DNA of 64,000 nucleotides from Candidatus Eiseniibacteriota bacterium (GTDB taxonomy: Bacteria; Eisenbacteria; RBG-16-71-46): assembly GCA_963717505.1 (NCBI GenBank), contig OY970342.1:1920001-1984000 (forward strand), read 5' to 3'. Of the stretch, positions 19,055 to 36,186 are shown in pieces. A program made the translations under genes and the position numbers. The number at the start of each line of letters is the position of its first letter. Positions within the stretch are counted from its first letter, which is position 1. The notes beneath the pieces are model-generated. The model was given only the letters and a program-made list of their open reading frames with translations, was not told the origin of the DNA and did no database searches.

Positions 19055-20604
19055 GGAGCCTCGCGCTGCGGGTCGACGCCACCGGCGGAGCGTAACGCTC
19101 GTTCCCTGAGTGCCGCCGCCTCGGCCATCGTCGAATCCAGCGCCAACGCCCGGTCGAGTCGCGCCAACGCCCCTCGGGGATCGCCCAATTGCAGCAGCGC
19201 GAGCCCGGCGTTCTTGTACAGGAACGCCTCGCCCGGAAATCGGGCAATGCCGCGTTCGAGCAGGACCCACGCGTCGCCCACCTGCCGATTCTGAATCAGG
19301 GCCCAGCCCAGGTTGTTGTAGGACTCGGCACTCGAGGAGTCGACCGCGAACGACTGGCGCTGGTTCGCCACCGCCTCGCCGTACATACCGCGCTTCGAGT
19401 ATGAGTCGGCCAGGTTGAAGTAGGCGCCGGCGCGCACGGCGGGGTCGCGGGGGTGGTGGCGGAGCATGGCTTGGAACAGCGAGTCGGCCGTCGCGTAGCG
19501 GCCGTCCTGGACCGCGAGTATCCCGAGCGAGCTGAGCACGTTGGCATTCGCGGGATCCTTGGCCACCGCTTGCTCGAGCAGGCTGCGAGACAGGTCCGAG
19601 CGGCCGGCCTGGTTCGCCTCGAGGGCGAGCTCGAACAACCGTCCCGCTTCCGCCTGTCTCTTCGACCCGCGAGAGACCATAAAACCCAGGCCCACGACCC
19701 CGAGGGTGACGACCAACGCGAGACCGACGAACAGCGCACGCGCCCGACCCGCCCGTGAACCCACCGGGGTTTGCATGTAAGTTTCGGCGCCGGTCCCCGA
19801 AACCCCGGTCAGCGAAGCCAGCTCCCGCGCCACGTCCGCGGCGCCGATGCGGGATGCCGGATCCTTCTCGAGCATGCGCTCGACCAGCCTGACGGCGGCC
19901 TCCGGCGCTTCCGGACGCGCGGCTGACAATGACGGCGGCGGCTCGTTCGTGATCTGGAACATGGTCGCCATTGCATTGTCGCTGGGATAGGCGCGACGCC
20001 CCGCCAGCATCTCCCACAACACCAGTCCGAGCGCGAATACGTCGGAGGCCGCGACCGGTTCGCTGCGAATCGCTTCCGGCGACATGTATGCCGGCGTGCC
20101 GAGCTGGGTGCCGGCCACCGTGACGCGTGACGCCTGCGTGGCGCGCGCCAGGCCGAAATCCATGACCCGGATCGCCCCATGTTCGTCGAACATCAGGTTC
20201 TCGGGTTTGATGTCCCGATGGCTGGTGCCGCGGCGGTGCGCGTAGGCGAGCGCGTCGGCCACATCGCGCGCGATGGTCAGAGCATCGGTCAACGGGAGCG
20301 GTCCGCCGGCGAGTCGCTCGCGCAGACTCGGTCCGGCCAACAGCTCCATCGCGATGAACGGCCGCTCGGCGTCGGGCTCGAACGCGTACACGGTGGCGAT
20401 GTGAGCGTGTCCGAGCTCGGCCGCTGCGAGGGCCTCGCGCTCGAAGCGCTCGAGCGCGTGCGGCTCCGACATCAGCTCGGCAGACAGGAACTTGAGCGCG
20501 ACCCGGCGGCGCAGCTTGAGGTCGGTCGCTTCCCAGACCTCGCCCATGCCGCCGCGGCCGATGCGGCGCAGCAACTCGTAGTGCGAGATGCGTTCGTGGT
20601 CCAT
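19051..20604 (-). CDS. Hanks-type Ser/Thr protein kinase with one TM and C-terminal TPR repeats
   Basis: GRGGMGEV, VALK, HRDIKPEN, DFGLA, GTPAYMSPE; hydrophobic segment LFVGLALVVTLGVVGLGFMV; TPR motifs AYFNLA, SYNNLGW. Confidence 0.92.
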   Translation of the reverse strand: MDHERISHYELLRRIGRGGMGEVWEATDLKLRRRVALKFLSAELMSEPHALERFEREALAAAELGHAHIATVYAFEPDAERPFIAMELLAGPSLRERLAGGPLPLTDALTIARDVADALAYAHRRGTSHRDIKPENLMFDEHGAIRVMDFGLARATQASRVTVAGTQLGTPAYMSPEAIRSEPVAASDVFALGLVLWEMLAGRRAYPSDNAMATMFQITNEPPPSLSAARPEAPEAAVRLVERMLEKDPASRIGAADVARELASLTGVSGTGAETYMQTPVGSRAGRARALFVGLALVVTLGVVGLGFMVSRGSKRQAEAGRLFELALEANQAGRSDLSRSLLEQAVAKDPANANVLSSLGILAVQDGRYATADSLFQAMLRHHPRDPAVRAGAYFNLADSYSKRGMYGEAVANQRQSFAVDSSSAESYNNLGWALIQNRQVGDAWVLLERGIARFPGEAFLYKNAGLALLQLGDPRGALARLDRALALDSTMAEAAALRERALRSAGGVDPQREAP

Positions 20605-20616
20605 TCGGGAGCGCGA

Positions 20617-20645
20617 AGGCTACTGCTCGGACGGACCCCCAACAA
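20617..20645 (-). promoter_or_regulatory. Putative sigma70 promoter for the kinase gene
   Basis: Minus strand TTGTTG-17 nt-TAGCCT, immediately adjacent to the IS target duplication. Confidence 0.4.
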
Positions 20646-20646
20646 G

Positions 20647-20662
20647 ACCGGTGAATTCCGGG
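20647..20662. repeat. Left target-site duplication (16 bp, ACCGGTGAATTCCGGG)
   Basis: Exact copy at 22023-22038. Confidence 0.9.
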
Positions 20663-22022
20663 TGTAAGGGAGCAGGCTTCTGACCGCGTTTGAGCAGCGA
20701 AGTGACCGCCGGGCGGGTGGGGCTGCTAAGACTGGACGCCAAGGAGGGTCCAGCGATGGCAGCGACCGCAGCCGCCCAGGAGCGGGCCATGAGATTTCAG
20801 GAGGTCATTTTGCAGGCGACACGCGGCAAGATTTCGTGGTGGCAAGCCGCCGAAGTGCTCGGCATCAGTCCGCGGACCTTGCGTCGCTGGAGAGTGGGTT
20901 ACCAGAAGTACGGAGTCAGGGGACTGCAGGACGGGCGTCGCGTGGATCGGGCCCCGAATGGGGTTCCAGAAGCGGAGATCCAACGTTGGATGAAGCTCTA
21001 CGAGCGGCACTGCCGCGGTTATAACGTGCGGCACTTCTACGCGGTGATGAAGCGTGAGCAGGGTGGCTGTCGCTGGTCGTACACGGTGGTGCGACGCGCG
21101 CTCCAGCACGCCGGCCTGGTGAAGAAGAAGCGTCCGCGCGGACGGCACTTCATCCGGCGCGAACCGCGTCCGTGCCGTGGCGAGCTCATCCACATCGACG
21201 GCAGCCGACACCGCTGGCTGACGCTGCTGCCGGACCAATGGCAGTGCCTGATTGCGGTCGTAGACGATGCGACCAAGCACCTGCTGTACGCGCAACTCGT
21301 CGAGAGCGAGACGACGACGACGATCATGACCGCACTGGCGGCCGTGGTCCGTGAACACGGCATCCCCCAGAGCGTCTATAGCGACCGTGCTGCGTGGGCC
21401 ACCTTCACTGCCCGTGCCGGCCAAGTCGTCGACCGATCGCGGCACACTCAGGTCGGACGGGCGCTTCACCATCTCGGCGTCGAACACATCATGGCCTACT
21501 CGCCGCAGGCCCGGGGCCGCAGCGAGCGCGTCAACCGTACGCTCCAGGACCGGTTGATCAAGGAGTTGCAGACCCACCACATCCGCACGGTCGACCGCGC
21601 CAATCGTTACCTGCGCGAGCGGTTCGTGCCCGAGTACAACCGCGAGTTCGCCCGCACCCCGGCCGAGGACGCATCCGGGTTTGCACCTCTCGGCGGGGCG
21701 GACCTCGATGCGATCTTCTGTCACCTCGAGTCCAGGACCGTGCAGCGCGACAACACGGTCACCCTGGATGGCCTCACGCTTCAGATCGCTCGTCAGCCCG
21801 GTCGCAGGACCTGTGCGGGCCTCACCGTCGAGCTGCGACGTCATCTCGACGGAACCCACACCATCACCTGTGGCACCAAGCTCTTCGGTCGCTACTCGGC
21901 CCAGGGACGTGCCCTCAGCGTTGAACCCATCGTTCACCCGGCGGCTGCAGTTCAGGCCGCCGTTGCTTAGGACCAGCGGTCAGATCGCTGCTCAAAAACG
22001 GTCAGATGGCTTGCTCTCAACA
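20663..22022 (+). mobile_element. Complete insertion sequence, 1360 bp, IS1202-like (ISNCY/IS481-related)
   Basis: TGT...ACA ends; 47-bp imperfect inverted repeats (20663-20709 and 21976-22022), each with two TGACCG motifs 22 bp apart; 16-bp flanking direct repeat; single transposase ORF. Confidence 0.9.
20756..21970 (+). CDS. DDE (integrase-core) transposase
   Basis: N-terminal HTH (AAEVLGISPRTLRRW), GELIHIDGSRHRW, VDDAT, YSDR, SPQARGRSERVNRTLQDRL; AAGGAGG RBS before ATG 20756. Confidence 0.93.
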   Translation: MAATAAAQERAMRFQEVILQATRGKISWWQAAEVLGISPRTLRRWRVGYQKYGVRGLQDGRRVDRAPNGVPEAEIQRWMKLYERHCRGYNVRHFYAVMKREQGGCRWSYTVVRRALQHAGLVKKKRPRGRHFIRREPRPCRGELIHIDGSRHRWLTLLPDQWQCLIAVVDDATKHLLYAQLVESETTTTIMTALAAVVREHGIPQSVYSDRAAWATFTARAGQVVDRSRHTQVGRALHHLGVEHIMAYSPQARGRSERVNRTLQDRLIKELQTHHIRTVDRANRYLRERFVPEYNREFARTPAEDASGFAPLGGADLDAIFCHLESRTVQRDNTVTLDGLTLQIARQPGRRTCAGLTVELRRHLDGTHTITCGTKLFGRYSAQGRALSVEPIVHPAAAVQAAVA

Positions 22023-22038
22023 ACCGGTGAATTCCGGG
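22023..22038. repeat. Right target-site duplication (16 bp)
   Basis: Exact copy of 20647-20662. Confidence 0.9.
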
Positions 22039-22102
22039 TGCCGAGTCGATTCGAGCGGACCCGCGACCGCCCGCGCGCAGTGAGGCGGGTGCGAGGCGGC
22101 GA

Positions 22103-23074
22103 CTATGGGGTCGCGCGGGACAGCTCGGCCGCTTTCTTGGATTCCGCCGCGGCCAGGTCGGTCAATCCCACGGTGCGATAGGCGCTGCTCAGCGCCTCGT
22201 GTGGTCCGGGCGCCTCGGGATCCAGCCGGCACAACGCCTCGAAGTGGGGGATGGCTTCGCCGTACAGGCCCTGGCCCATCAGATAGGACCCGGCCAGGTA
22301 ATGCGCCGCCTGCGGCGCTCCTTCGCGACTTGCGCGTTCGATGCTGCTCAGGTGGTCGACGACCTGGCGCGACTCGGGCGGCGTCATGACCGAGAACGCG
22401 GTGGCCTCGCTCCGGATGCGTCCCGACTCCCCCCACGCCGTGAGCTCGATCACGTAGTCGACTCCAGGCGCCAGTGAAGCCCGTTCCGCGGGGAACGCGG
22501 CGGAGGTGTCAGCGGTCTCGAGCCGGAACAGCTCGTCGTCGGCGTCTCCCGAAACCACCAGGAGATAGCGCGTGGCGCCGGGCACCGGGCGCCATTGGAA
22601 TTCCGGACGATCGCTGCGAATCACCGTGCGACGAGGCGACAGCACGAGGGGCTGAGGTTCTCCCGCATCGCCGCGCATCGGCGCGAGAGCGATCATCCCC
22701 GACTGCTTGGACTCGCCCTTGATGAAGCGAGAGATCTTGAGGAAGACGTCCCGCGAGACATCGGAGCCTGGTCCGAGCCGCTGCGCGTTTTCGGCGGTGA
22801 CCTTGCCGCCCACCGTCACCGTGCTCTGAGCACCCAGCTCGATCAGGTTGCCGTTGCCGAAAAAGAGTGAGGCGCTACTCGCGGCCCCTACCTGCACCCG
22901 GTCTCCGCGCTCGAGCGGACGCCCGAGCACGGCGCGCTGCGCCGCGCTCGAACCGGCCGGGGTGACCGTGACCTTGCCCTTCATTGCGACCACGAACGCC
23001 ACCGGATCGGCCAGCGCGACCGAGGCCAGGAACGTGGCGAGCCCAACGCATCCGACGATGCCGAGCCGGGTCAT
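22103..23074 (-). CDS. Secreted protein with FecR-like N-terminus, DUF928-like middle domain and C-terminal TPR
   Basis: Signal peptide ending ALA; V..MKGKV...L.RGD.V.VG..SSA.L.F (FecR-like); MRG...LSPRRT...RPEFQW (DUF928-like); TPR helices at the C-terminus; GGAGG RBS. Domain names are recalled by pattern. Confidence 0.65.
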   Translation of the reverse strand: MTRLGIVGCVGLATFLASVALADPVAFVVAMKGKVTVTPAGSSAAQRAVLGRPLERGDRVQVGAASSASLFFGNGNLIELGAQSTVTVGGKVTAENAQRLGPGSDVSRDVFLKISRFIKGESKQSGMIALAPMRGDAGEPQPLVLSPRRTVIRSDRPEFQWRPVPGATRYLLVVSGDADDELFRLETADTSAAFPAERASLAPGVDYVIELTAWGESGRIRSEATAFSVMTPPESRQVVDHLSSIERASREGAPQAAHYLAGSYLMGQGLYGEAIPHFEALCRLDPEAPGPHEALSSAYRTVGLTDLAAAESKKAAELSRATP

Positions 23075-23301
23075 GCCCCCCTCCGCAATCCATTGAATTC
23101 GCCCACGAATCAACCCTAGGTCACGCGCTCCATGCCGACAACGGCTCTTCCGGACGGCGGAGCAACATCACCCCTGCGGCCCGAATCGACCCCACCCCAT
23201 TGCCGCCGTCCGTCTCTGGATCAAAGTACCCCGGCGCCCGTTCGAAGTTGGTGCGCCAGAAGCCCCTGGACCGGCTGCGCTCTTGGCTTCAGGGGCGGTC
23301 C

Positions 23302-23330
23302 TTGCCGCCTGCCGGGGCTGCGGCTAAGGT
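23302..23330 (+). promoter_or_regulatory. Putative sigma70 promoter for pyrR
   Basis: TTGCCG-17 nt-TAAGGT; a leader hairpin ACCGTCGC/GCGACGGT follows at 23347-23368. Confidence 0.45.
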
Positions 23331-23347
23331 GCCTGGACTCGGGATGA

Positions 23348-23938
<591 letters not shown>

Positions 23939-23963
23939 GTCCGCACGCTCCGGGCGCGCACCG

Positions 23964-26039
23964 CTAGTCGAGCGGCCCCGAACCACCCACCAGTACGAAG
24001 GGCGCCCAGAAGTAAGGGGACCGCGTCTCCACGTCCTGCAGCAGGATCCGCTTCGCGTCCGCGAGGGCGCCGGCGCGGGACAGGCCAGCCTTGAGCACCT
24101 GTCCGTAATAGCGTTCGAGCAGTTGGTCCGTCGAACGGCCTCGGACGCGCCAGTGGCTCAAGAGGACGCTCTCGGCGCCGGACGCCAGGAATCCATGCGC
24201 GAAGCCGACCACGCCCTCGGCACCATCGATCCTCCCGAGCCCGGCCTCGCACGCGGGAATCGTGACCTGCGAAGCGCGGAGGCGCAGCCCCACGAGGTCG
24301 GCGAGGCCCACGAAGCTCGACTCGCTGCCGCCGGACTCAGCCGCGAGCCGTACCCCCGAACGCTCCGGCTCGATGTCGTTGGCCGTGGCCGGGCTCGCCA
24401 GGTGAAGCACGTCCGCCTCCATGAATTCGCGGGCCGCGAGCAGCCGCGATCGACTGGCCTCGGCGCTGGTCCACCCAACAAAGGAGCGCTTGCGGGCGAG
24501 CTTGGACAACGTCTCGAGCTGGTTCGTATCGCCGATCGCCAGGATCGGACCGACGACGACATCGTGAGACAAGCGGCCGAGCACGGTGGCGGAGGGGGCG
24601 TACGAGATCGCGAAGCGACTGATCAGGAAGTCGCGAGGCGTGGGCCCAAGGTCGGTGGCAGGAACTGCGAGCAGGGCCTCGAAGGGAATCGAAGCCAGTT
24701 CGCCGTCCGGCACCACGATCAGCTCCGAGACGCCCTTGAGCCAGGGCTCGGCCGGCTGGATCAGCGCGCGATAGAGCTGATGGCTGACGGTGAGGGCGTT
24801 GCGATCTCCCGCCCGGCTGGGGTCGGCGAGACTCGTTCGCAGGGTTCGCACTCGGTCGCGCAGGGCGCGGCGGGAGGGCAGGCTCAGGTGGCGAAACTCG
24901 TCTCGGCGAAGCACCCATAGCGAGGTGCTCGAGTCGCCTACGCTGTAGTAGAGCATCGCCACACGCTTCGAGATCAGCAGGCGCTGAGCGTCCTCGAGTC
25001 CCAGCAGGACCACGGAATCGCGCCCGGCTTCGGGGGCGCCCAGGAGGCGACGCCGGACCAGGAGCGTTTGTGCATGCGCGCGCTCCGCCCACATGAAGCC
25101 TCGAGTCGCGAAGCCGCTGTCGGGGAACGCCTTCTCGAGGCGCGCGTGCAAATGAACCATCGACTCGTAGGCAGGCAACGCCCCCGGCGCGGGTCGGGAC
25201 TCGGTCCGTCCGGACGAATCGATGAGCGCAATCGCCTCGCGGTAGTGCTCGATGGCCAGCGTGTGGTTGCGGCGACGCTCCGCGACGCCGCCGAGCCCGA
25301 TCAGGGCGCGCTGCGCCAGGTCGAGGGAGCCGGCGTAAAGGGCGAGTTCCAGCGCTTGTCGGTGCCCGGCTTCCGCAGGATCGAGGCGCCCGGAGAACTC
25401 CCGCGCGGTGGCGAGCCCGATCAGGTCCTCGGCGCGATCCTCCAGTCCCAGTCCGCCGGAACTCGCGAGCGCGCGTTCGAACCATGGTTCGGCATCGGCC
25501 GCTCGACCGCGGTCGAGTGCCAACCGGCCGATCAGCGACGCGGCGTTGCGGACCAGGGTCGAATCTCCCGCTTCCGACGCGGCGGCGAGCGATTCGCGCG
25601 CTCGCGCATCGGCTCCGGGGGCATCGCCCGACAGGCCCTGTGCCCAGGCGAGGTTCCGGAGAATCCGCGAACGGAGCGCGGGATCGCGGAGCGAGTCGGC
25701 AATCGCCAGGGCGCGGGTCAGGTCGTTGCGCGCGGGCCCGGGGTCGCCGAAGGAACCGGCCTCGAGCGCCATCGCCCCGAGGGCCTCGAGCACCGACGCT
25801 GCGCGCACAGGATCACCGAGCCGCCGATAGGATTCGAGTGCCACGCGATAGGCGCTGTCGGCGGTCGCGAAACGGTGCTGGTTGCGGGCGGCCAGCGCAT
25901 AGGCCTCGACGTCCTCCGCCGCCGGCGATTGGGCGTGCGCGACCAGCCCCGGGTCGAGGACTGCGCATTGCGAAACCAGCACGGCCAACGCGGCGGCCGG
26001 TCGGAAAAGGCCCCGGATCGCACGGCGCGAACGCTCCAT
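23964..26039 (-). CDS. TPR + CHAT (caspase HetF-associated) domain protein, probably catalytically inactive
   Basis: Hydrophobic N-terminus, TPR repeats, IVPDGELASIPFEAL, ISYAPSA, ACEAGLG, GAESVLLSHW, PYFWAPFVLVG; the catalytic H-x-x-x-H-G motif reads HLASPA. Start uncertain. Confidence 0.85.
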   Translation of the reverse strand: MERSRRAIRGLFRPAAALAVLVSQCAVLDPGLVAHAQSPAAEDVEAYALAARNQHRFATADSAYRVALESYRRLGDPVRAASVLEALGAMALEAGSFGDPGPARNDLTRALAIADSLRDPALRSRILRNLAWAQGLSGDAPGADARARESLAAASEAGDSTLVRNAASLIGRLALDRGRAADAEPWFERALASSGGLGLEDRAEDLIGLATAREFSGRLDPAEAGHRQALELALYAGSLDLAQRALIGLGGVAERRRNHTLAIEHYREAIALIDSSGRTESRPAPGALPAYESMVHLHARLEKAFPDSGFATRGFMWAERAHAQTLLVRRRLLGAPEAGRDSVVLLGLEDAQRLLISKRVAMLYYSVGDSSTSLWVLRRDEFRHLSLPSRRALRDRVRTLRTSLADPSRAGDRNALTVSHQLYRALIQPAEPWLKGVSELIVVPDGELASIPFEALLAVPATDLGPTPRDFLISRFAISYAPSATVLGRLSHDVVVGPILAIGDTNQLETLSKLARKRSFVGWTSAEASRSRLLAAREFMEADVLHLASPATANDIEPERSGVRLAAESGGSESSFVGLADLVGLRLRASQVTIPACEAGLGRIDGAEGVVGFAHGFLASGAESVLLSHWRVRGRSTDQLLERYYGQVLKAGLSRAGALADAKRILLQDVETRSPYFWAPFVLVGGSGPLD

Positions 26040-26124
26040 GTTCAGAAAATGCCACGTCCAGAGAGTCACTGGCGGCATCCTCGGGCAATCCGCAGCCGGC
26101 GACAAACGTCTCGCGCCGACTTCC

Positions 26125-26153
26125 TTGATCTCGGCGACGCGAAACGCTACATT
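26125..26153 (+). promoter_or_regulatory. Putative sigma70 promoter for the pyrB operon
   Basis: TTGATC-17 nt-TACATT. Confidence 0.6.
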
Positions 26154-26182
26154 CCGCCACCGAGAAAACCATTCGGTTCCGT

Positions 26183-26216
26183 CTCTTTAACGCGACCCCG
26201 CGAGGTCGCGAAGGGG
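26183..26216 (+). promoter_or_regulatory. PyrR-binding RNA hairpin
   Basis: CTCTTT-AA-CGCGACC-CCGCGA-GGTCGCG-AAGGGG matches the established PyrR site (CUUUAA, upper stem, CNGNGA hexaloop, AAGG); pyrR is nearby. Confidence 0.8.
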
Positions 26217-26221
26217 GTGTA

Positions 26222-27217
26222 GTGACCGTGTCTACGCTCATACCGAACCCGGCGTCCCAGGACGCTGGGCTTTTTCATGCGCCCGAGCAGGTCGTTGGCC
26301 CGCACTTGCTGGGTCTCGAGGGGGTCGGTCGGCCGGAGCTGACCGCGATCCTCGACTCGGCGGTCCACTATCGCGAGCGGACGCGCGCCCGCGAGACCTC
26401 GGAAGTGCTCCGCGGGGTCGCGGTCTGCCTGGCCTTCTTCGAGGACTCGACCCGGACTCGCGTCAGCTTCGAGCTGGCCGCGCGCCGGCTGGGCGCGATG
26501 CCCGTGGTGGTCTTCCCGCAGGGGTCTTCGATGTCCAAGGGTGAGAGCCTGCTGGACACCCTGCAGACCATCGTCTCGATGCGCGTCGATCTGGTCGTCG
26601 TGCGGCATCGGTCGGCCGGGGCCTCGCACTACCTCGCTCGCCACCTCGACGCCGGGGTGATCAACGGCGGCGACGGGGCGCACGAGCATCCGACTCAGGG
26701 CCTGCTCGATCTGCTCACCCTGCGCGACGCCTGGCATGGACGCTTCGACGGCCGGCGGATCGCGATCGTCGGCGACCTCGCGCACTCCCGGGTCGCGCGC
26801 TCCGCGATCTTCGGACTGACGACTCTCGGGGCGCGGATCACGGTGGCCGGTCCCGCGACGCTGATGCCGGAGGGCATCGCGAACCTCGGCTGCGACGTCG
26901 CGCCGACCGTCGAAGACGCGCTGCGCGGCGCCGATGCCGCGATGGCGCTGCGGGTCCAGCACGAGCGGATGGAGAAGAGCCTGATTCCCTCGACCCGCGA
27001 GTACGCGCGGCGGTGGGGACTGAACTCGGAGCGCGTGCAACTGATGAAAGCGGATGCGGTCGTCCTGCACCCGGGACCGTTCAATCGCGACGTCGAGATC
27101 GCCTCCGGCGTGGTCGACGGGGAGCGTTCGGTGATCTGGCGGCAGGTCGAGAACGGCGCCGCGGTGCGCTGCGCGGTGCTCGAGCGCTGCGCGCGGGCGC
27201 GCGGAGCCGCGCGATGA
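26222..27217 (+). CDS. pyrB: Aspartate carbamoyltransferase catalytic subunit
   Basis: FFEDSTRTRVSFE, SKGESL, GDGAHEHPTQGLLD, GDLAHSRVARS, LHPGPFNR. Start GTG 26222 or 26228. Confidence 0.95.
   Translation: MTVSTLIPNPASQDAGLFHAPEQVVGPHLLGLEGVGRPELTAILDSAVHYRERTRARETSEVLRGVAVCLAFFEDSTRTRVSFELAARRLGAMPVVVFPQGSSMSKGESLLDTLQTIVSMRVDLVVVRHRSAGASHYLARHLDAGVINGGDGAHEHPTQGLLDLLTLRDAWHGRFDGRRIAIVGDLAHSRVARSAIFGLTTLGARITVAGPATLMPEGIANLGCDVAPTVEDALRGADAAMALRVQHERMEKSLIPSTREYARRWGLNSERVQLMKADAVVLHPGPFNRDVEIASGVVDGERSVIWRQVENGAAVRCAVLERCARARGAAR
26248..26275 (+). terminator. Attenuator-like intrinsic terminator inside the first codons of pyrB
   Basis: CCCGGCGTC-CCAG-GACGCTGGG followed by CTTTTT. Confidence 0.6.
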
Positions 27218-28530
27218 CCGGTCTCCGGATCCAGAACGCGCGACACTGGCGGACCGGCGAGCCCATCGAGGTCGCGATCCGAGACGGGATGATTCAGAGC
27301 GTTTCATCCGCCCCCAAGGGGGAGACACTCGAGAGCATCGATGCCGGCGGCGCGATCCTGGCGCCGGGCCTGGTCGACCTTCACGTCCACCTGCGCGAGC
27401 CCGGGCAGTCGGGAAAAGAGACCATCGTTTCGGGCACGCGCGCCGCGGCCGCCGGGGGTTTCACCGCAGTCGCGTGCATGCCCAACACCGAGCCGGTGCT
27501 CGACTCGCCGGCCTGGATCGAATGGGTGATGAGCCGTGCTCGCGACGCTGGATCCTGCCGCGTGCACCCGATCGCCGCGGTCACGATCGGCCAGAAGGGC
27601 GAGCAGCTCGCCGAGCTGGCTTCCCTGGCCGCCGCGGGGGCGGTGGCGTTCTCCGACGACGGCCGCCCGATCATGAGCGCCGGCATGATGCGCCGTGCAC
27701 TCGAATACGCGCGCGACCTCGGCCGGCCGATCGTCTGCCACGAAGAGGACCTGACGCTCCGCGGCGACGGGCACATGAACGAGGGCCCGGTCGCGACCCG
27801 GCTCGGACTGGCCGGCATCCCGACCGAGGCCGAGAGCGTCATGGTTCGGCGCGATTGCGATCTGGTCGAGCGCACCGGCGGCCGGGCCCACTTCGCGCAC
27901 CTCTCCTGCGTGCGCTCGCTCGACGCGGTGCGCGAAGCCAAGCAGCGCGGACTCCCGGTGAGCGCCGAGACCTGCCCGCACTACTGGACGCTGACCGACG
28001 ACGCCGTGGGTCGCTGGGACACGAACGCCAAGATGAACCCGCCGCTGCGCTCCGAGCGTGACCGCCTCGCGGTGATCGAGGCGATCGCCGACGGCACCGT
28101 GGACTGCCTGACCACCGACCACGCGCCGCACCGCGCGACCGAGAAGGACCTGCCGTTCGACCAGGCGCCGTTCGGCATCGTCGGCCTCGAGACCGCTCTG
28201 GCCCTGACGATCACGAATCTCGTGACCCCCGGGCACATCTCGATGGCGCGCGCGCTCGAGCTGTGGACCGAGGCGCCACGGCGGGTGTTCGGGCTCCCGC
28301 CGGTCGTACTCGCGCCGGGGCATCCGGCGGACCTGGTGCTCATTCGGCCCGACGAGGAGTGGACGGTGAATCCCGAGAAGTTCCATTCACTGGGACGCAA
28401 TACGCCCTTCGCCGGAGCGCGCCTGCAGGGCGTCGTGCTCGCCACGGTCTGCGGCGGGCGCGTCACGCACGCCCACGCCTCTCTGGTTCGTTCGCGCGGT
28501 GCGGCGGCGATGGCGGAGGCGCCTCGATGA
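27214..28530 (+). CDS. pyrC: Dihydroorotase (multifunctional-complex type)
   Basis: PGLVDLHVHLREPG, MPNTEP, FSDDG, KMNPPLR, TDHAPH, GRNTPF; ATG overlaps the pyrB stop. Confidence 0.95.
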   Translation: MTGLRIQNARHWRTGEPIEVAIRDGMIQSVSSAPKGETLESIDAGGAILAPGLVDLHVHLREPGQSGKETIVSGTRAAAAGGFTAVACMPNTEPVLDSPAWIEWVMSRARDAGSCRVHPIAAVTIGQKGEQLAELASLAAAGAVAFSDDGRPIMSAGMMRRALEYARDLGRPIVCHEEDLTLRGDGHMNEGPVATRLGLAGIPTEAESVMVRRDCDLVERTGGRAHFAHLSCVRSLDAVREAKQRGLPVSAETCPHYWTLTDDAVGRWDTNAKMNPPLRSERDRLAVIEAIADGTVDCLTTDHAPHRATEKDLPFDQAPFGIVGLETALALTITNLVTPGHISMARALELWTEAPRRVFGLPPVVLAPGHPADLVLIRPDEEWTVNPEKFHSLGRNTPFAGARLQGVVLATVCGGRVTHAHASLVRSRGAAAMAEAPR

Positions 28531-29684
28531 GCCTGCGGCCGCCTGCGATTCTGGCGCTCGAAGACGGCCGCGTGTTTCGCGGCGAGGCGTTCGGCGCCGA
28601 GACCGAAACCACCGGCGAAGTCGTGTTCAACACCTCGATGACCGGTTACCAGGAGGTGTTGTCCGATCCGTCCTACTGCGGCCAGATCATCACCTTCACC
28701 TACCCGCTGCTCGGGAACTACGGCGTCAACTCGCAGGATTGGGAGAGCGACCGGATTCGCGCGCAGGCCGTGGTCTGCCGCGAGATCTGCGATCGGCCGA
28801 GCAGCTGGCGCTCCGAGGGCACGCTGGGCGGGCTGCTCGAGCAGAACGGGATTCCGGGCATCAGCGGCATCGACACCCGTGCGCTGACCCGGCACCTGCG
28901 CGACCACGGGGTCATGCGCGGCTGCTTGTCGTCGGTCGAAAAGAACCCCGACGCCTTGGTCGACCGCGCGCGCAAGAGCCCGAGCATGCTCGGACTCGGA
29001 CTCGCCGACCTGGTCACCTGTGCGGAGCCCTACGAGTGGACCGACGGCGGTCCGACGCCGATCGACGCGCGGGCCGAGGACGACCGTCCGCTGATCGCCG
29101 TGCTCGACTGCGGCGTCAAGTACGGGATCCTGCGCCGTCTCCAGGCCGAAGGGTTCCGAGTCCGCGTGCTCCCGGCGCGTACGACCGCGTCCGAAGTGCT
29201 CGCGCATCACCCGTCGGGGGTGGTGTTGTCCAACGGACCCGGGGACCCCGAACCGCTCGACTTCGCCGTCGAAGCCGCGCGCGGCCTGTGCGGCAAGGTC
29301 CCGGTGCTCGGCATCTGCCTCGGTCACCAGCTGCTCGGGCTCGCCTACGGCGGCACGACCCGCAAGCTCAAGTTCGGACATCGCGGCATCAACCACCCGG
29401 TGATCGACCGGCGGAACGGCGTGATCGAGATCACGTCCCAGAACCACGGCTTCATGGTCGATCCCTCGGGCCTCCCCGACGAGCTGGAGCAGACCCACTG
29501 GAGCTGCAACGACGGCACGCTCGAAGGCATGGTGCACAAGAGCCAGCCGGTGCTGTCGTGCCAGTACCACCCCGAGGCGAGTGCGGGGCCACACGATGCG
29601 CGGCCGTGGTTCCGCCGCTTCGCCGAGCAGGTGGTGCGTTCGCGGCCGGCCGCGGCACCGGTGCTGGTCGGAGGGCGGCGCTGA
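28527..29684 (+). CDS. carA: Carbamoyl-phosphate synthase small subunit
   Basis: GEVVFNTSMTGYQE, SNGPGDP, GICLGHQ, SQNHGF, QYHPEA. Confidence 0.96.
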   Translation: MSLRPPAILALEDGRVFRGEAFGAETETTGEVVFNTSMTGYQEVLSDPSYCGQIITFTYPLLGNYGVNSQDWESDRIRAQAVVCREICDRPSSWRSEGTLGGLLEQNGIPGISGIDTRALTRHLRDHGVMRGCLSSVEKNPDALVDRARKSPSMLGLGLADLVTCAEPYEWTDGGPTPIDARAEDDRPLIAVLDCGVKYGILRRLQAEGFRVRVLPARTTASEVLAHHPSGVVLSNGPGDPEPLDFAVEAARGLCGKVPVLGICLGHQLLGLAYGGTTRKLKFGHRGINHPVIDRRNGVIEITSQNHGFMVDPSGLPDELEQTHWSCNDGTLEGMVHKSQPVLSCQYHPEASAGPHDARPWFRRFAEQVVRSRPAAAPVLVGGRR

Positions 29685-30242
29685 TGCCAAGCAATCCGGA
29701 CCTTGTTCCCCTGTTGAAGGAGGAACTTCGAAGTTTCTTGCGATCAGCAAGAGTCCTCTTGGCTCACGGCGAGTCCACTACTTATGAGCCACTACCAGCA
29801 GCAGCGCTGACCTTCATCTTGATCGAGTCTATGGGAAGCATCTTAGAAGGCAACGAGCTCGTAAGAGTCACCGTTGATGAGAAATTGAGGAAGATATCCA
29901 ACAATCGACAGCACATCTTCATTCTCAACACCAAGTACTTTGACCTGAACCTTTCTGAGATGACTCTGGATCTAGCCCATGATTCGTTTCGAAACCCTCT
30001 CGTGCATCAATGCGCAATCGGCGGGGATGGTTGCTTGCGCCCTTTCGGACTGGTGTTGGAGAAGGGAGACAAAACGGAGGCCTTTCCTCCACTTATCATC
30101 TTAGGCAGTGGCCACCTCCAAGTCGCTCTCAGCAACCTTCTTGATCGAACAGAGAGAGCCTTGGATGCTTTTCTCGCCGACTTGGATGAACTTGCCAAAT
30201 CCAGCCCGAGGTTGAAGTACCTTTACTTGGAGTCTTCATCTA

Positions 30243-30259
<17 letters not shown>
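29684..30259 (+). CDS. Low-GC hypothetical protein (191 aa) with an RxxxxH HEPN-like motif
   Basis: ATG overlaps the carA stop (TGATG) with GGAGG upstream; open for 191 codons in a low-GC stretch; contains FRNPLVHQ. Confidence 0.7.
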
Positions 30260-33454
<3,195 letters not shown>

Positions 33455-33458
<4 letters not shown>

Positions 33459-35236
33459 GGCGTTCCGCCGTTGTCGCCGGGCTGGCCCTGATTATCGCCG
33501 CCAGCTCGTGCGCCTACTACAACACGTTCTATCTCGCGCGGAAGAACTACTTCCTGGGCACGGCGGGGGAGCCCTATCCGCTCGACCAGAACGTGCAGAA
33601 TCGCGCGCAGTTCACGCGCTCGATGGATTTCTCGAAGAAACTGTTGAGCCAGTACCCCAAGTCCAAGTGGGTCGACGACGCCTACGTCCTCTGGGCGTGC
33701 TCGCTGCTCGGTCAGGACGATCCGATCAAGACGGTCAGCATGCTCGAGGACTTTCCGGTCCGTTTCCCCAACAGTCCGATTCGCCCGGAAGCCACGTTCT
33801 ACCTCGGGGTCGGCTACCGGCAGTCGCGCAAGTACCGCAACGCCGTCCGAGCGCTCGACGAGTTCCTCGAGCACTCGCCCAAGCACAAGCTCGCACCGTA
33901 CGCGCACTTCGAGCGCGCGCGCTCTCTCATGTCGCTCAACGAGCCGGCGGAGGCCGCGCAGGCGGCGTCGCGGGTGCTCGAAGACTTCCCGAAGAGCAAG
34001 CTGGCGAACCGCGCGCGGATCACGCGCGCCGACGCCCGATTCGAGGCTCGCGACTACGAACAGGCGCGCCTCGACTATCGGTACCTCGGCCAGCGCGCGG
34101 CCACCGACGAGGAGCGCCTGCGGTTCCTGTTGCGCGAGGCGGACTGCCTCGAGTCGGGCCAGCAGTACGAAGAAGCGTTGGCGCTGCTCGGTGATGCCAT
34201 CAGCTACGAGCGCCCGCCGGTGCTGAGCGACACGACCGGTGGCCGGGTCGCGCAGGTGCAGCAGGTTCCCGGCTATGACCGCTACGGCCGGCTTCTGATC
34301 CGGATCGGCACGGTCCACCTCTCCGCCGGACGCCTGCAGTTGGCACTCGATGCCTACGGCCGCGTGGTCGAGGACTACCCGCGCGACGGTCTGGCGCACG
34401 AAGCGCAATTCCGGATCGGCTACGCGTACGAAACCCTGGGGGACGACTTCGACCGGGCACGCACCGAGTACCAGACGGCGCGCGTTCAGGGCGGACAGGT
34501 GGGGTTCGGTATCCAGGCCGAAGAGCGGCTCAAGAACCTCGAACGACTCGCGCAATTCCGCGGTGAGGGTCAGGACTCCACCGAGCGCCAGGTCGAAGCC
34601 GGCTTCCTGCTCGCCGAACAGTATCTGTTCCAGCTCGACAAGCCCGAACGCGCGCTCGAGGAGTACCAGAAGATCGCGCGTGAGAATCCGGGCACCGCCG
34701 CAGCGGCCAAGGCGCTCAACGCCCAGGCGTGGGTGCTGTCGCGGAAATACAAACGGAATGCCGAGGCGGATTCGATCTTCTGGTACGTGATCCACAACCA
34801 TCCGGCGACCGAGGCGCAATTGGCGGCCCGGGACTATCTCGAGATGACCGGCAAGGAAGTGCCGGCCGAACTGATCAAGCTGCCCGAGCCACCGATCGTG
34901 GCTCAGGACACGATGCCCGAGCTGACCCCGGTGCCCGAGAGCGTGCCCGGGATCGGCGAGCTTCCTCAGGCGGACAGCCTTACGCGCCTCGGCCGATCGC
35001 CCGCGCCCCCGGGTGTCGCGCCCGATCAGGCGCCACCGGACCCCGGGTTCGAACCCGACGAGCCGGTGCTGGCGCCGGCGGTGATCGCCGCGGATTCGTT
35101 GCGCCGGCTGGGTAGCGACAGCACCGCGACCGCCCCGGACACCGCCAAGACCCGCCCGACGATGCCGGATTCACTGCCGCCGCCGCAGCGGCCCGTGCCA
35201 CAACCTCCCGACACTTCACGGAAGCTCGAGAAGTGA
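33455..35236 (+). CDS. TPR-rich lipoprotein (BamD/SprE-like) with Pro-rich tail
   Basis: GTG start with GGAGG RBS; lipobox ASS-C then AYYNTFY; repeated [25 protein letters not shown] loops. Confidence 0.8.
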
Positions 35237-36186
35237 GCGGCGTGCGCGACCAGTCCCGGACCCACGCCGCAAAGTCCGTGGCGGAATCGCGCGCGCCAAT
35301 CGGCTGGCGGCAAATGGTGGCCACGGTTTCGACACACGAGGACCGAGGCGCCGGACACTTCTGGCTCGACCTCGACATTCCAGCACCCTTCGCGCGCCCG
35401 CTTCCCGGGCAGTTCGTTCAACTCCTGCTCGGACCCGAGGCGACGGGTGCCCTGCTGCCGCGACCGATGAGTGTCGCCGGCGTGAAGCCGCGCGGTCGTG
35501 GGTGGCGGGTGGGCTTTCTCTACGCACCGGTGGGTCTGGGCACGGGTTCGCTGGCGCGACTTCGCCCCGGGGATCGGGTCGAAGTCCTCGGTCCGCTCGG
35601 GCGCGGCTATCCGCTCGGCGAGCCCGGAACCCCGGTGCTGGTCGCCGGCGGACGCGGCGTCGCACCGCTGCTGCTGGCCGCAGATACCCTGGCCGACTCG
35701 CGCGCGGGCCGGAACGGAGATCGCTCCGGTCGTCGCTGCGAGTTCCTGTTCGGCGCGCGTTCGGCGTCCCATCTGGTCGGGTTGTCCGATGCCAAGCGGC
35801 GACTCGCGCGCCTGGGGGGGCGTCTCCATCTGTGCACCGACGACGGCTCGCGCGGCCTGCGCGGCAACGTCGTTCAGCTGCTCGATCGCGTGGTCGAAGA
35901 CGTCGAGGGCCCGATCGTGATCCACGCCTGCGGGCCACACGGCATGCTGCGCGCCGTGGCCGAGTGGGCGATCGCACGGGGCACGCGCGCCCATCTCGCG
36001 ATGGAGTCGATGATGGCGTGCGGCACCGGTGTGTGCCGCGGCTGCCCGTTGCCGCGCAGCGACGCGGCGCGACGCGCCTTCGCGCCCCGGACGCCCTCGC
36101 TGTTCGGCAATGCCGACTACGCGATGTGCTGCACCGAGGGTCCGGTGTTCGAGGCGCGCGAGCTGGACTGGGAGCGGGTCGCGTGA
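35233..36186 (+). CDS. pyrK: Dihydroorotate dehydrogenase electron-transfer subunit
   Basis: PGQF, RPMS, GPLGRG, VAGGRGVAP, TDDGS, CGP, MACGTGVCRGC...C.EGPVF 2Fe-2S motif. Confidence 0.9.
   Translation: MSGVRDQSRTHAAKSVAESRAPIGWRQMVATVSTHEDRGAGHFWLDLDIPAPFARPLPGQFVQLLLGPEATGALLPRPMSVAGVKPRGRGWRVGFLYAPVGLGTGSLARLRPGDRVEVLGPLGRGYPLGEPGTPVLVAGGRGVAPLLLAADTLADSRAGRNGDRSGRRCEFLFGARSASHLVGLSDAKRRLARLGGRLHLCTDDGSRGLRGNVVQLLDRVVEDVEGPIVIHACGPHGMLRAVAEWAIARGTRAHLAMESMMACGTGVCRGCPLPRSDAARRAFAPRTPSLFGNADYAMCCTEGPVFEARELDWERVA

Follow-up and report, generated by a model that had tools for sequence, protein, structure and literature searches.

The 64,000-nucleotide (nt) stretch of Candidatus Eiseniibacteriota DNA analysed here, which we call the window (contig OY970342.1, positions 1,920,001 to 1,984,000), contains a pyrimidine biosynthesis (pyr) operon whose carA and carB genes are separated by an additional open reading frame (ORF) of 191 amino acids (aa), referred to as gene X in the following (Table 1). 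An earlier note on this DNA had described X as a foreign HEPN-like gene inserted exactly at the coupled carA/carB junction and using the operon's own translation signals, and the ORF coordinates that it gave, its TGATG, its GGAGG and GGAG boxes and the 17-nt overlap with carB were confirmed. The start of carA was set at MSLRPP from an alignment with relatives. The carA stop codon TGA (29682–29684) and the X start codon ATG (29684–29686) share the A of a TGATG, and the GGAGGG box lies 8 nt 5′ of this ATG. X spans 576 bp, has 191 intact codons and ends with a TGA at 30257–30259; with the carB ATG at 30243, the last 17 nt of X lie inside carB in a different frame, and the GGAG is positioned 10 nt 5′ of the carB start. 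X is thus chained to both neighbours. The product contains ILIES (residues 45–49) and FRNPLVHQ (residues 102–109), as had been read by eye, and its C-terminal tail, the end of which falls inside carB, is unconserved in the family alignment described below.

Table 1 Features of the pyr operon in the window and arrangements at cargo-bearing carA-carB junctions
Feature	Position	Strand	Evidence or detail
carA, 385 aa	28527..29684	+	Pfam CPSase_sm_chain 1.5e-55, GATase 1.5e-49
Shine-Dalgarno-like box GGAGGG inside carA end	29670..29675	+	Read from sequence
Gene X, 191 aa, HEPN-like	29684..30259	+	E48 in helix 2; R103-N-P-L-V-H108 at helix 3 end
GGAG inside X end	30229..30232	+	Read from sequence
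carB, 1071 aa	30243..33458	+	Pfam CPSase_L_D2 3.3e-103, CPSase_L_D1 4.8e-93, MGS 4.5e-21
PyrR (pyr attenuation regulator/uracil phosphoribosyltransferase)	23405..23929 (matched stretch, not true ends)	+	NCBIfam NF003549, Pfam Pribosyltran 2.8e-25
PyrR-binding-site-like leader before pyrB	26180..26278	+	Rfam RF00515 39.9 bits, E 0.014, full model 1-115
pyrB (aspartate carbamoyltransferase)	26222..27217	+	Pfam OTCace_N 3e-38, OTCace 4.3e-24
pyrC-like dihydroorotase	27214..28530 (ORF coordinates)	+	Pfam Amidohydro_1 1.2e-23, DHOase 2e-11
Junction in G000 (window genome)			carA-X-carB
Junction in G022			carA-X-carB; TGATG at both ends; GC about 0.55-0.59
Junction in G045			carA-LysE-ATPase-X-carB; overlaps ATGA, ATGA, ATGGCTAA; X stop TAG directly before carB ATG
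Junction in G065			carA-LysE-X-ORF112-carB
Junction in G049			LysE alone between carA and carB
Junction in G008: PEMT/ICMT-like methyltransferase and 34-aa ORF between carA and carB	L011 2009-2509	-	Pfam PF04191 4e-13
Junction in G012: PEMT/ICMT-like methyltransferase	L062 114-710	-	Recognised by similar C-terminal motif alone
Junction in G041: 182-aa ORF	L063 101-649	-	Signal-peptide-like start; GC 0.79; TGATG overlap with carB start

By composition X is foreign, and it was probably acquired horizontally. The insert has a guanine-plus-cytosine (GC) content of 0.498 compared with 0.682 for the whole window, and among 6,345 sliding windows of 559 nt (mean 0.682, standard deviation 0.027) it marks the sole place in the 64 kb where GC drops below 0.58. 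At third codon positions (GC3), X reaches 0.58, compared with 0.90 for carA and 0.91 for carB. The earlier hand counts of 29/60 (29701–29760) and 23/60 (29881–29940) proved exact on recount. The pentamer ATGCC does occur at both ends of the insert (29684–29688 and 30243–30247, 559 nt apart), as had been pointed out; as a duplication that would point to a mechanism it does not hold up, because 5 nt is too short and ATGCC also opens every carB start printed for relatives. In agreement with the earlier description, neither an adjacent antitoxin protein nor a transposase nor terminal inverted repeats are present at the locus in the window genome, where X is single-copy, and a repeat search of the window for terminal inverted repeats or hairpin arms around X returned only short, imperfect and misplaced pairs.

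To place the insertion in context, we collected 51 carB-start loci from the window's Candidatus Eisenbacteria family, setting aside four further hits at or near contig starts. Three of the 51 could not be assessed (one at a contig start, one with only 287 nt upstream, and and one with a divergent carB that is not adjacent to carA), leaving 48 junctions: 26 TGATG overlaps, seven gaps of 2–10 nt, seven gaps of 28–94 nt, and eight junctions with cargo of at least 500 nt. The 26 overlaps, which read ...CTGATGCC..., are empty sites of the kind that removal of X would restore in the window, as the earlier note had proposed. Empty sites and different cargo are therefore both found at the same place, and the idea of a one-off insertion into a pristine junction is contradicted, since four of the eight cargo junctions, in four genera (G000, G022, G045 and G065), hold an X homologue. 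Among 89 genomes from the window's family, six have a match to the family profile, and a search of 206 genomes of the phylum also gave six, all of them in that family; four of these six have X at carA-carB and two, G049 and G008, have it elsewhere.

The remaining cargo is varied. LysE is present at full length in G045, G065 and G049, and a PEMT/ICMT-like membrane methyltransferase of native GC is found in two genera (G008 and G012). LysE and the methyltransferases have a GC3 of 0.88–0.96 and appear native by this measure, as opposed to 0.58–0.70 for X and for its companions at two junctions, an ATPase (G045) and ORF112 (G065). The cargo junctions that were read closely are all formed by ATGA, TGATG or other overlaps, or by a stop codon beside a start codon, and no transposase, integrase or terminal inverted repeat is present at the junction loci. 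In most of the 28–94-nt gaps there are mini-ORFs whose start lies on the carA stop codon and whose end falls on the carB start or shortly before it. Three mini-ORFs are similar to the N-terminus of LysE (32 aa in G011, L018, with RGVVLGLSIAAPV compared with RGLVLGFSIAAPV; 18 aa in G042, L059; 34 aa in G008, L011) and overlap the stop codon before them (of carA, or in G008 of the methyltransferase) as well as the start of carB. Their appearance is that of decayed genes retained as ribosome relays, suggesting that LysE was formerly present at carA-carB in several genera and decayed there to relay ORFs. Because LysE or its stumps have occupied the junction widely, X may have landed beside LysE. 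Judging from these arrangements, extra genes occur time and again between carA and carB in this family, always in relay form.

Four of the shorter gaps, of 40–46 nt, carry ORFs of 13–17 codons (L015 in G043, L017 in G010, L020 in G002 and L067 in G015) that likewise begin at the carA stop codon, through ATGA or GTGA, and reach the carB start or finish just short of it; a [S/T/G]-M-P-x-P core is common to three of the four. At L014 (G048, 1204–1530), carA is seemingly split over two frames upstream of a normal TGATG, which is possibly a frameshift or a sequencing error.

Two companions of X at the junction were considered as partners. The ATPase in G045 is a 537-aa AAA+ protein of the ORC-CDC6-like type (L040 1560-3173, minus strand, GC3 0.68) that matches PF24389 above the cut-off (3e-10) and PADLOC mad8 weakly (2e-4), and an ATGGCTAA overlap joins it to the start of the X homologue. 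ATPase and X possibly form a two-gene sensor-effector module, an arrangement seen once. ORF112 in G065 gives a full-length match to Imm58 that is sub-threshold (E 0.0034, 17.8 versus 25 bits); as this is the sole support for an immunity protein of X, the candidate was dropped. A conserved partner of X was also dropped, as ORF112, the ATPase and two neighbours in G049 match nothing at other X loci.

An exhaustive phmmer search with X against 1.84 billion representative proteins returned 89 proteins at E≤1e-3, ten of them at E≤1e-10, with a top identity of 36% and mostly of about 170–220 aa. A profile search extended this to 130 clusters at E≤1e-5, none with a Pfam domain; the names listed for them are 'hypothetical protein' or functionless, and the named records listed are metagenome-assembled genomes (MAGs) of Bacteroidota and Patescibacteria. 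The X protein itself has no match in Pfam, PADLOC or NCBIfam and a single chance-level row of unknown function in PHROGs (E 0.32); a word-indexed homologue search with the single protein gave no match, and tblastn with a consensus-like homologue found none in plasmids and phages. Because no library model matches and only 'hypothetical protein' names are attached, this widely scattered bacterial family of about 180 aa appears to be so far undescribed. In a 45-sequence alignment, G51, R103 and H108 are invariant (45/45) within a family motif R-[S/N/C]-x-L-x-H-N, where the residue after R is N104 in X and S, N or C in the relatives displayed; at the acidic position of helix 2, X has E48 where at least 80% of members have D. 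The earlier note had staked its reading on conservation of the arginine and histidine, and their invariance argues that the coding frame is real and that the R/H pair is the hallmark of the family.

AlphaFold2 on the family alignment gives a confident model of X (predicted local distance difference test score (pLDDT) 88.8, predicted template modelling score (pTM) 0.87), with helices at 7–30 and 36–53, an insert at 54–91 (hairpin plus short helix), a helix at 92–102 leading into R103..H108, a strand-rich loop at 110–148 and a last helix at 149–173. The predicted topology, in which the insert separates helices 2 and 3 and R-x4-H comes right behind helix 3, agrees with the HEPN layout as set out in the accessible part of PMC3710099. 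The same source names as HEPN features the R-x4-6-H motif, with R followed by a polar residue, and an acidic helix-2 position. On motif and predicted topology, the X family likely belongs to the HEPN superfamily.

We examined 14 X loci, six from Eisenbacteria and eight from other bacteria. The GC content of the homologue is below that of its locus in six of six Bacteroidota loci. Neighbours in Bacteroidota include a Gabija-like pair (an OLD-type ATPase-TOPRIM protein plus UvrD helicase), a TIR-pentapeptide protein accompanied by a transposase and an RHS protein, HNH and CoiA-like nucleases, an nSTAND1 NTPase and an integrase fragment; one Bacteroidota locus adjoins ordinary TonB-receptor genes. 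In G049 (L047 1-6675), X comes last in a one-strand row that resembles a defence island, after a restriction endonuclease fragment, a 939-aa N6/N4 DNA methylase, a SIR2_2 protein and two ORFs of 218 and 208 aa that belong to no known family, while the G008 homologue stands alone, off carA-carB. No neighbour gene is common to different X loci. From the neighbours seen, the X family has the character of a stand-alone gene found in defence islands and on mobile elements.

One 649-aa gene call (P0208) combines HTH_17, Phage_integrase (a tyrosine integrase) and the X domain (hhalign E 4e-46). It may be a genuine fusion or an annotation that reads through a stop; in both cases it connects the X family with an integrative element. 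In one lineage (cluster members P0208, 649 aa, and P0064, 278 aa), the X domain comes after a tyrosine integrase within a single gene call.

Whether the junction copies stem from one insertion or several was addressed by their relationships. The copies in G022, G045 and G065 have 43–51% mutual identity, and the window copy is 29–33% identical to them. In a rapid maximum-likelihood tree with 85 members, from which ten of the 89 hits were omitted (one duplicate, eight fragments shorter than 150 aa and one 1,242-aa protein), the window copy was placed beside P0004, from a Gammaproteobacteria MAG, and P0009, apart from the other three junction copies. An independent origin of the window copy is a matter on which this tree cannot decide; a tree with the four junction copies as a clade exceeded the freely searched one by 10.4 log-likelihood units and could not be rejected (approximately unbiased test, p-AU 0.61). 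This non-rejection, together with the LysE context common to G045 and G065, fits one old insertion followed by losses. Repeated acquisition or exchange is suggested by a GC3 far from the host value of 0.9, by companion genes that differ, and by differing junction details. The insert in G022 is bounded by a direct, not inverted, repeat of 28 nt at 82% identity with 13 nt perfect (GGGTGCGCTGATG), which equals the empty-site junction sequence of several relatives and of which the window shares ATGCC alone. As to GC3, a protein divergence of 50–70% accumulated in place should have allowed full amelioration. On balance, we put repeated acquisition or exchange slightly ahead of one old insertion.

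The window copy is embedded in an operon, pyrB-pyrC-carA-X-carB, that is chained throughout by start/stop overlaps, of the ATGA type at pyrB/pyrC and pyrC/carA. Upstream, a PyrR gene scores 253.5 bits against NF003549 (cut-off 138) in the window's own genome, and the PyrR-binding-site-like leader before pyrB, which is the sole match to RF00515 in the whole genome, contains a terminator-like hairpin (26248–26269) followed by CTTTTT. The listed GTG of pyrB falls inside this leader; the true start is therefore probably further downstream. No other Rfam match was found in 20000–36000. A scan of 25000–34500 found no sigma-70-like promoter and three terminator-like sites compared with 3.9 expected, of which only that in the pyr leader is relevant. 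Attenuation of the operon by PyrR is thus a plausible prediction.

A gene for a 713-aa TPR-CHAT protein (23964–26105, minus strand; CHAT 1.8e-47) separates pyrR from the pyr leader and runs in the direction opposite to both. A CHAT protein is also encoded 3.6 kb from the X homologue at a Cyclobacteriaceae locus (L048), which is probably a coincidence.

Taken together, these findings lead us to favour, with moderate confidence, a reading in which X is a stand-alone HEPN-type RNase effector carried in a PyrR-attenuated pyr operon. X would be a metal-independent RNase in which R103 and H108 form the catalytic pair and E48 in helix 2 assists, acting as a stand-alone abortive-infection or toxin-type effector, as does AbiV, and harmless until triggered. 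Transcription would run from the PyrR-attenuator-like leader through pyrB-pyrC-carA-X-carB, ribosomes ending carA would start X, and ribosomes ending X would re-start on carB, making X a non-polar passenger; insertions that break the relay to carB would probably be lost. We infer the RNase activity, the defence or toxin role, the relay as a selective filter and the PyrR control from the sequences and their arrangement. The X family offers a testable candidate for a stand-alone defence RNase, with a HEPN catalytic signature, unrecognised by Pfam, NCBIfam and PADLOC, and located near known defence genes.

Several observations weigh against this proposal. A constitutively co-translated RNase in an essential operon, with no visible inhibitor, is hard to reconcile with the toxicity expected of it, and public sequencing runs gave no RNA evidence either way on expression of X. 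For PyrR control as the earlier note had claimed it, the PyrR gene and the full-length leader stand in its favour, but at 39.9 bits the leader remains under the gathering score of 54. For HEPN membership, motif and predicted topology bear out the earlier claim and sequence methods do not. Foldseek, run with the X model on the PDB, returned nothing at E≤1e-3; the top distinct entries, all above that value, are AbiV, YutE and PPAR-gamma ligand-binding domains, with the sacsin HEPN domain lower. The family profile found nothing relevant among all PDB sequences (two chance-level rows); hhalign against one HepT-like profile gave a probability of 2.1%, aligning FRNPLVHQ with RFRNRIVHL only; none of 45 members scanned singly matched Pfam at E≤1, and none of eight matched PADLOC. 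No sequence method therefore ties the X family to any described HEPN family. Searches of the BFVD viral fold library gave nothing at E≤1e-3, and the ESM Atlas returned only unnamed clusters. Finally, the window copy is divergent, with the longest end branch in the tree (2.0 versus a median of 0.72) and only 18 of the 25 columns conserved at ≥80% retained, which places it among the three lowest of 45 members (family median 0.91).

This divergence would also be consistent with X having lost its function in the window genome and persisting as a relic, its frame held open merely as a spacer for ribosomes passing from carA to carB. The LysE-like stumps in relatives, which persist as relay ORFs without protein function, set a precedent, and X has no partner gene and an unconserved C-terminal tail that ends in carB. 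All 191 codons are nevertheless intact though a far shorter ORF would do for a relay; R103, H108, G51 and the acidic helix-2 residue are retained; the changes at conserved columns are mostly conservative (D>E, S>T, N>Q, I>M, V>L and F>L); and the sequence still folds on the family alignment with the pLDDT given above. We consider a relic unlikely, while regarding it as the strongest of the rival explanations. Less probable still is a non-catalytic HEPN-like or other four-helix protein, perhaps an adaptor or regulator that binds nucleotides or RNA and, for instance, senses the nucleotide pool. According to the accessible part of PMC3710099, many HEPN domains are binding modules and some lack the full motif, and the site is a nucleotide-biosynthesis operon in four genera; against this, the invariant R-x4-H, with a polar or small residue next to its R, and the acidic position in helix 2 make up the catalytic signature as that source describes it, and outside this bacterial family X is linked to defence and mobile genes, not to pyrimidine genes. 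That a chimera or mis-join placed low-GC DNA between carA and carB in this metagenome-type assembly (completeness 86.7%) is very unlikely because three independent assemblies from three other genera show carA-X-carB or carA-...-X-...-carB, in-frame start/stop overlaps and Shine-Dalgarno boxes not being expected from a mis-join and X being single-copy in a one-contig genome of 4.16 Mb, even though no contig in public sequencing runs crosses either junction. The earlier note had named long-read support as a check; of the words sampled, the best public run contains a fraction of 0.18, two 151-nt contigs from a soil run are identical to the interior of X, and the cover of other runs falls on conserved carA and carB of other organisms.

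Returning to X as an RNase effector, one may speculate, with considerable doubt, that defence-type cassettes land preferentially at the carA-carB overlap in distant phyla and would be captured by recombination at the short, near-universal ...GCGCTGATGCC..., each insertion duplicating the junction and thereby rebuilding the coupling on both sides. The 13-nt perfect repeat within the 28-nt repeat of G022 fits this speculation, as do four junction copies with unameliorated GC3 at 29–51% identity. If true, an RNase effector would sit behind a PyrR attenuator and its dose would be tied to pyrimidine starvation, which phage replication can cause. 

Apart from this speculation, the junctions of the family show that an essential, stoichiometrically coupled operon junction can serve as a slot for accessory genes provided that the ribosome relay is kept, with decayed cargo surviving at carA-carB as mini-ORFs, which bears on gene gain and loss in operons and on safe, expressed sites for defence genes.

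Extra ORFs between carA and carB have been described in Xanthomonas citri and Pseudomonas aeruginosa; they are mutually unrelated and their functions are given as unknown (PMC4619228, in its accessible part). Similarly to X, the X. citri ORF overlaps the end of carA by one base, and it is co-transcribed; that part of the source mentions neither a HEPN link nor a hotspot nor an origin from low-GC DNA. We found no paper combining carA, carB and HEPN, and nothing on defence in the literature on 'between carA and carB'.

Among known systems, AbiV of Lactococcus, the HEPN RNase of a two-component abortive-infection system (PDB 9bj5/9bj6/9bj7), offers one comparison; according to the accessible part of its description it is expressed with or without phage (bioRxiv 10.1101/2024.05.05.592566). 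AbiV resembles the predicted fold of X in its helical HEPN core with an insert, and neither has an adjacent protein antitoxin. Unlike X, which has the classical motif invariant in its family and sits in a biosynthetic operon, AbiV lacks the classical R-x4-6-H and has an alternative histidine (PMC3710099, accessible part), and the two have no detectable sequence relation by Pfam or by the profile search of PDB sequences. AbiV also needs the RNA antitoxin gene abiV2, whereas the X locus leaves no intergenic room, with coding overlap on both sides; a novel RNA could still lie inside coding sequence.

HEPN effectors beside ORC-CDC6 or STAND NTPases have been proposed in predicted immunity systems such as HINPO (bioRxiv 10.64898/2026.10.19.760177, accessible part). 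The G045 junction is similar in that an ORC-CDC6-like ATPase (PF24389) lies upstream of, and translationally overlaps, the X homologue, consistent with the logic of a sensor NTPase and a HEPN effector. It differs in having no ParA or inactive nucleotidyltransferase, the ATPase pairing occurs at one of the 14 loci, and the window copy has no ATPase.

The HepT/MNT toxins (PF01934; PDB 7ae6, 7ae8, 5yep and 1ylm) have an R-x4-H that aligns motif to motif with that of X. X differs from them in lacking an adjacent MNT nucleotidyltransferase, its neighbours being carA and carB, and in being about 60 residues longer, with the beta-rich insert at 110–148 after the motif and the low hhalign probability given above; no nucleotidyltransferase was found among the neighbour ORFs scanned at relatives' X loci. 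The window genome additionally encodes a classical HepT-like HEPN toxin elsewhere (3946679-3947032, minus strand, L081; PF01934, 95.7 bits), and HepT-like genes are present in 15 of the 61 family genomes searched.

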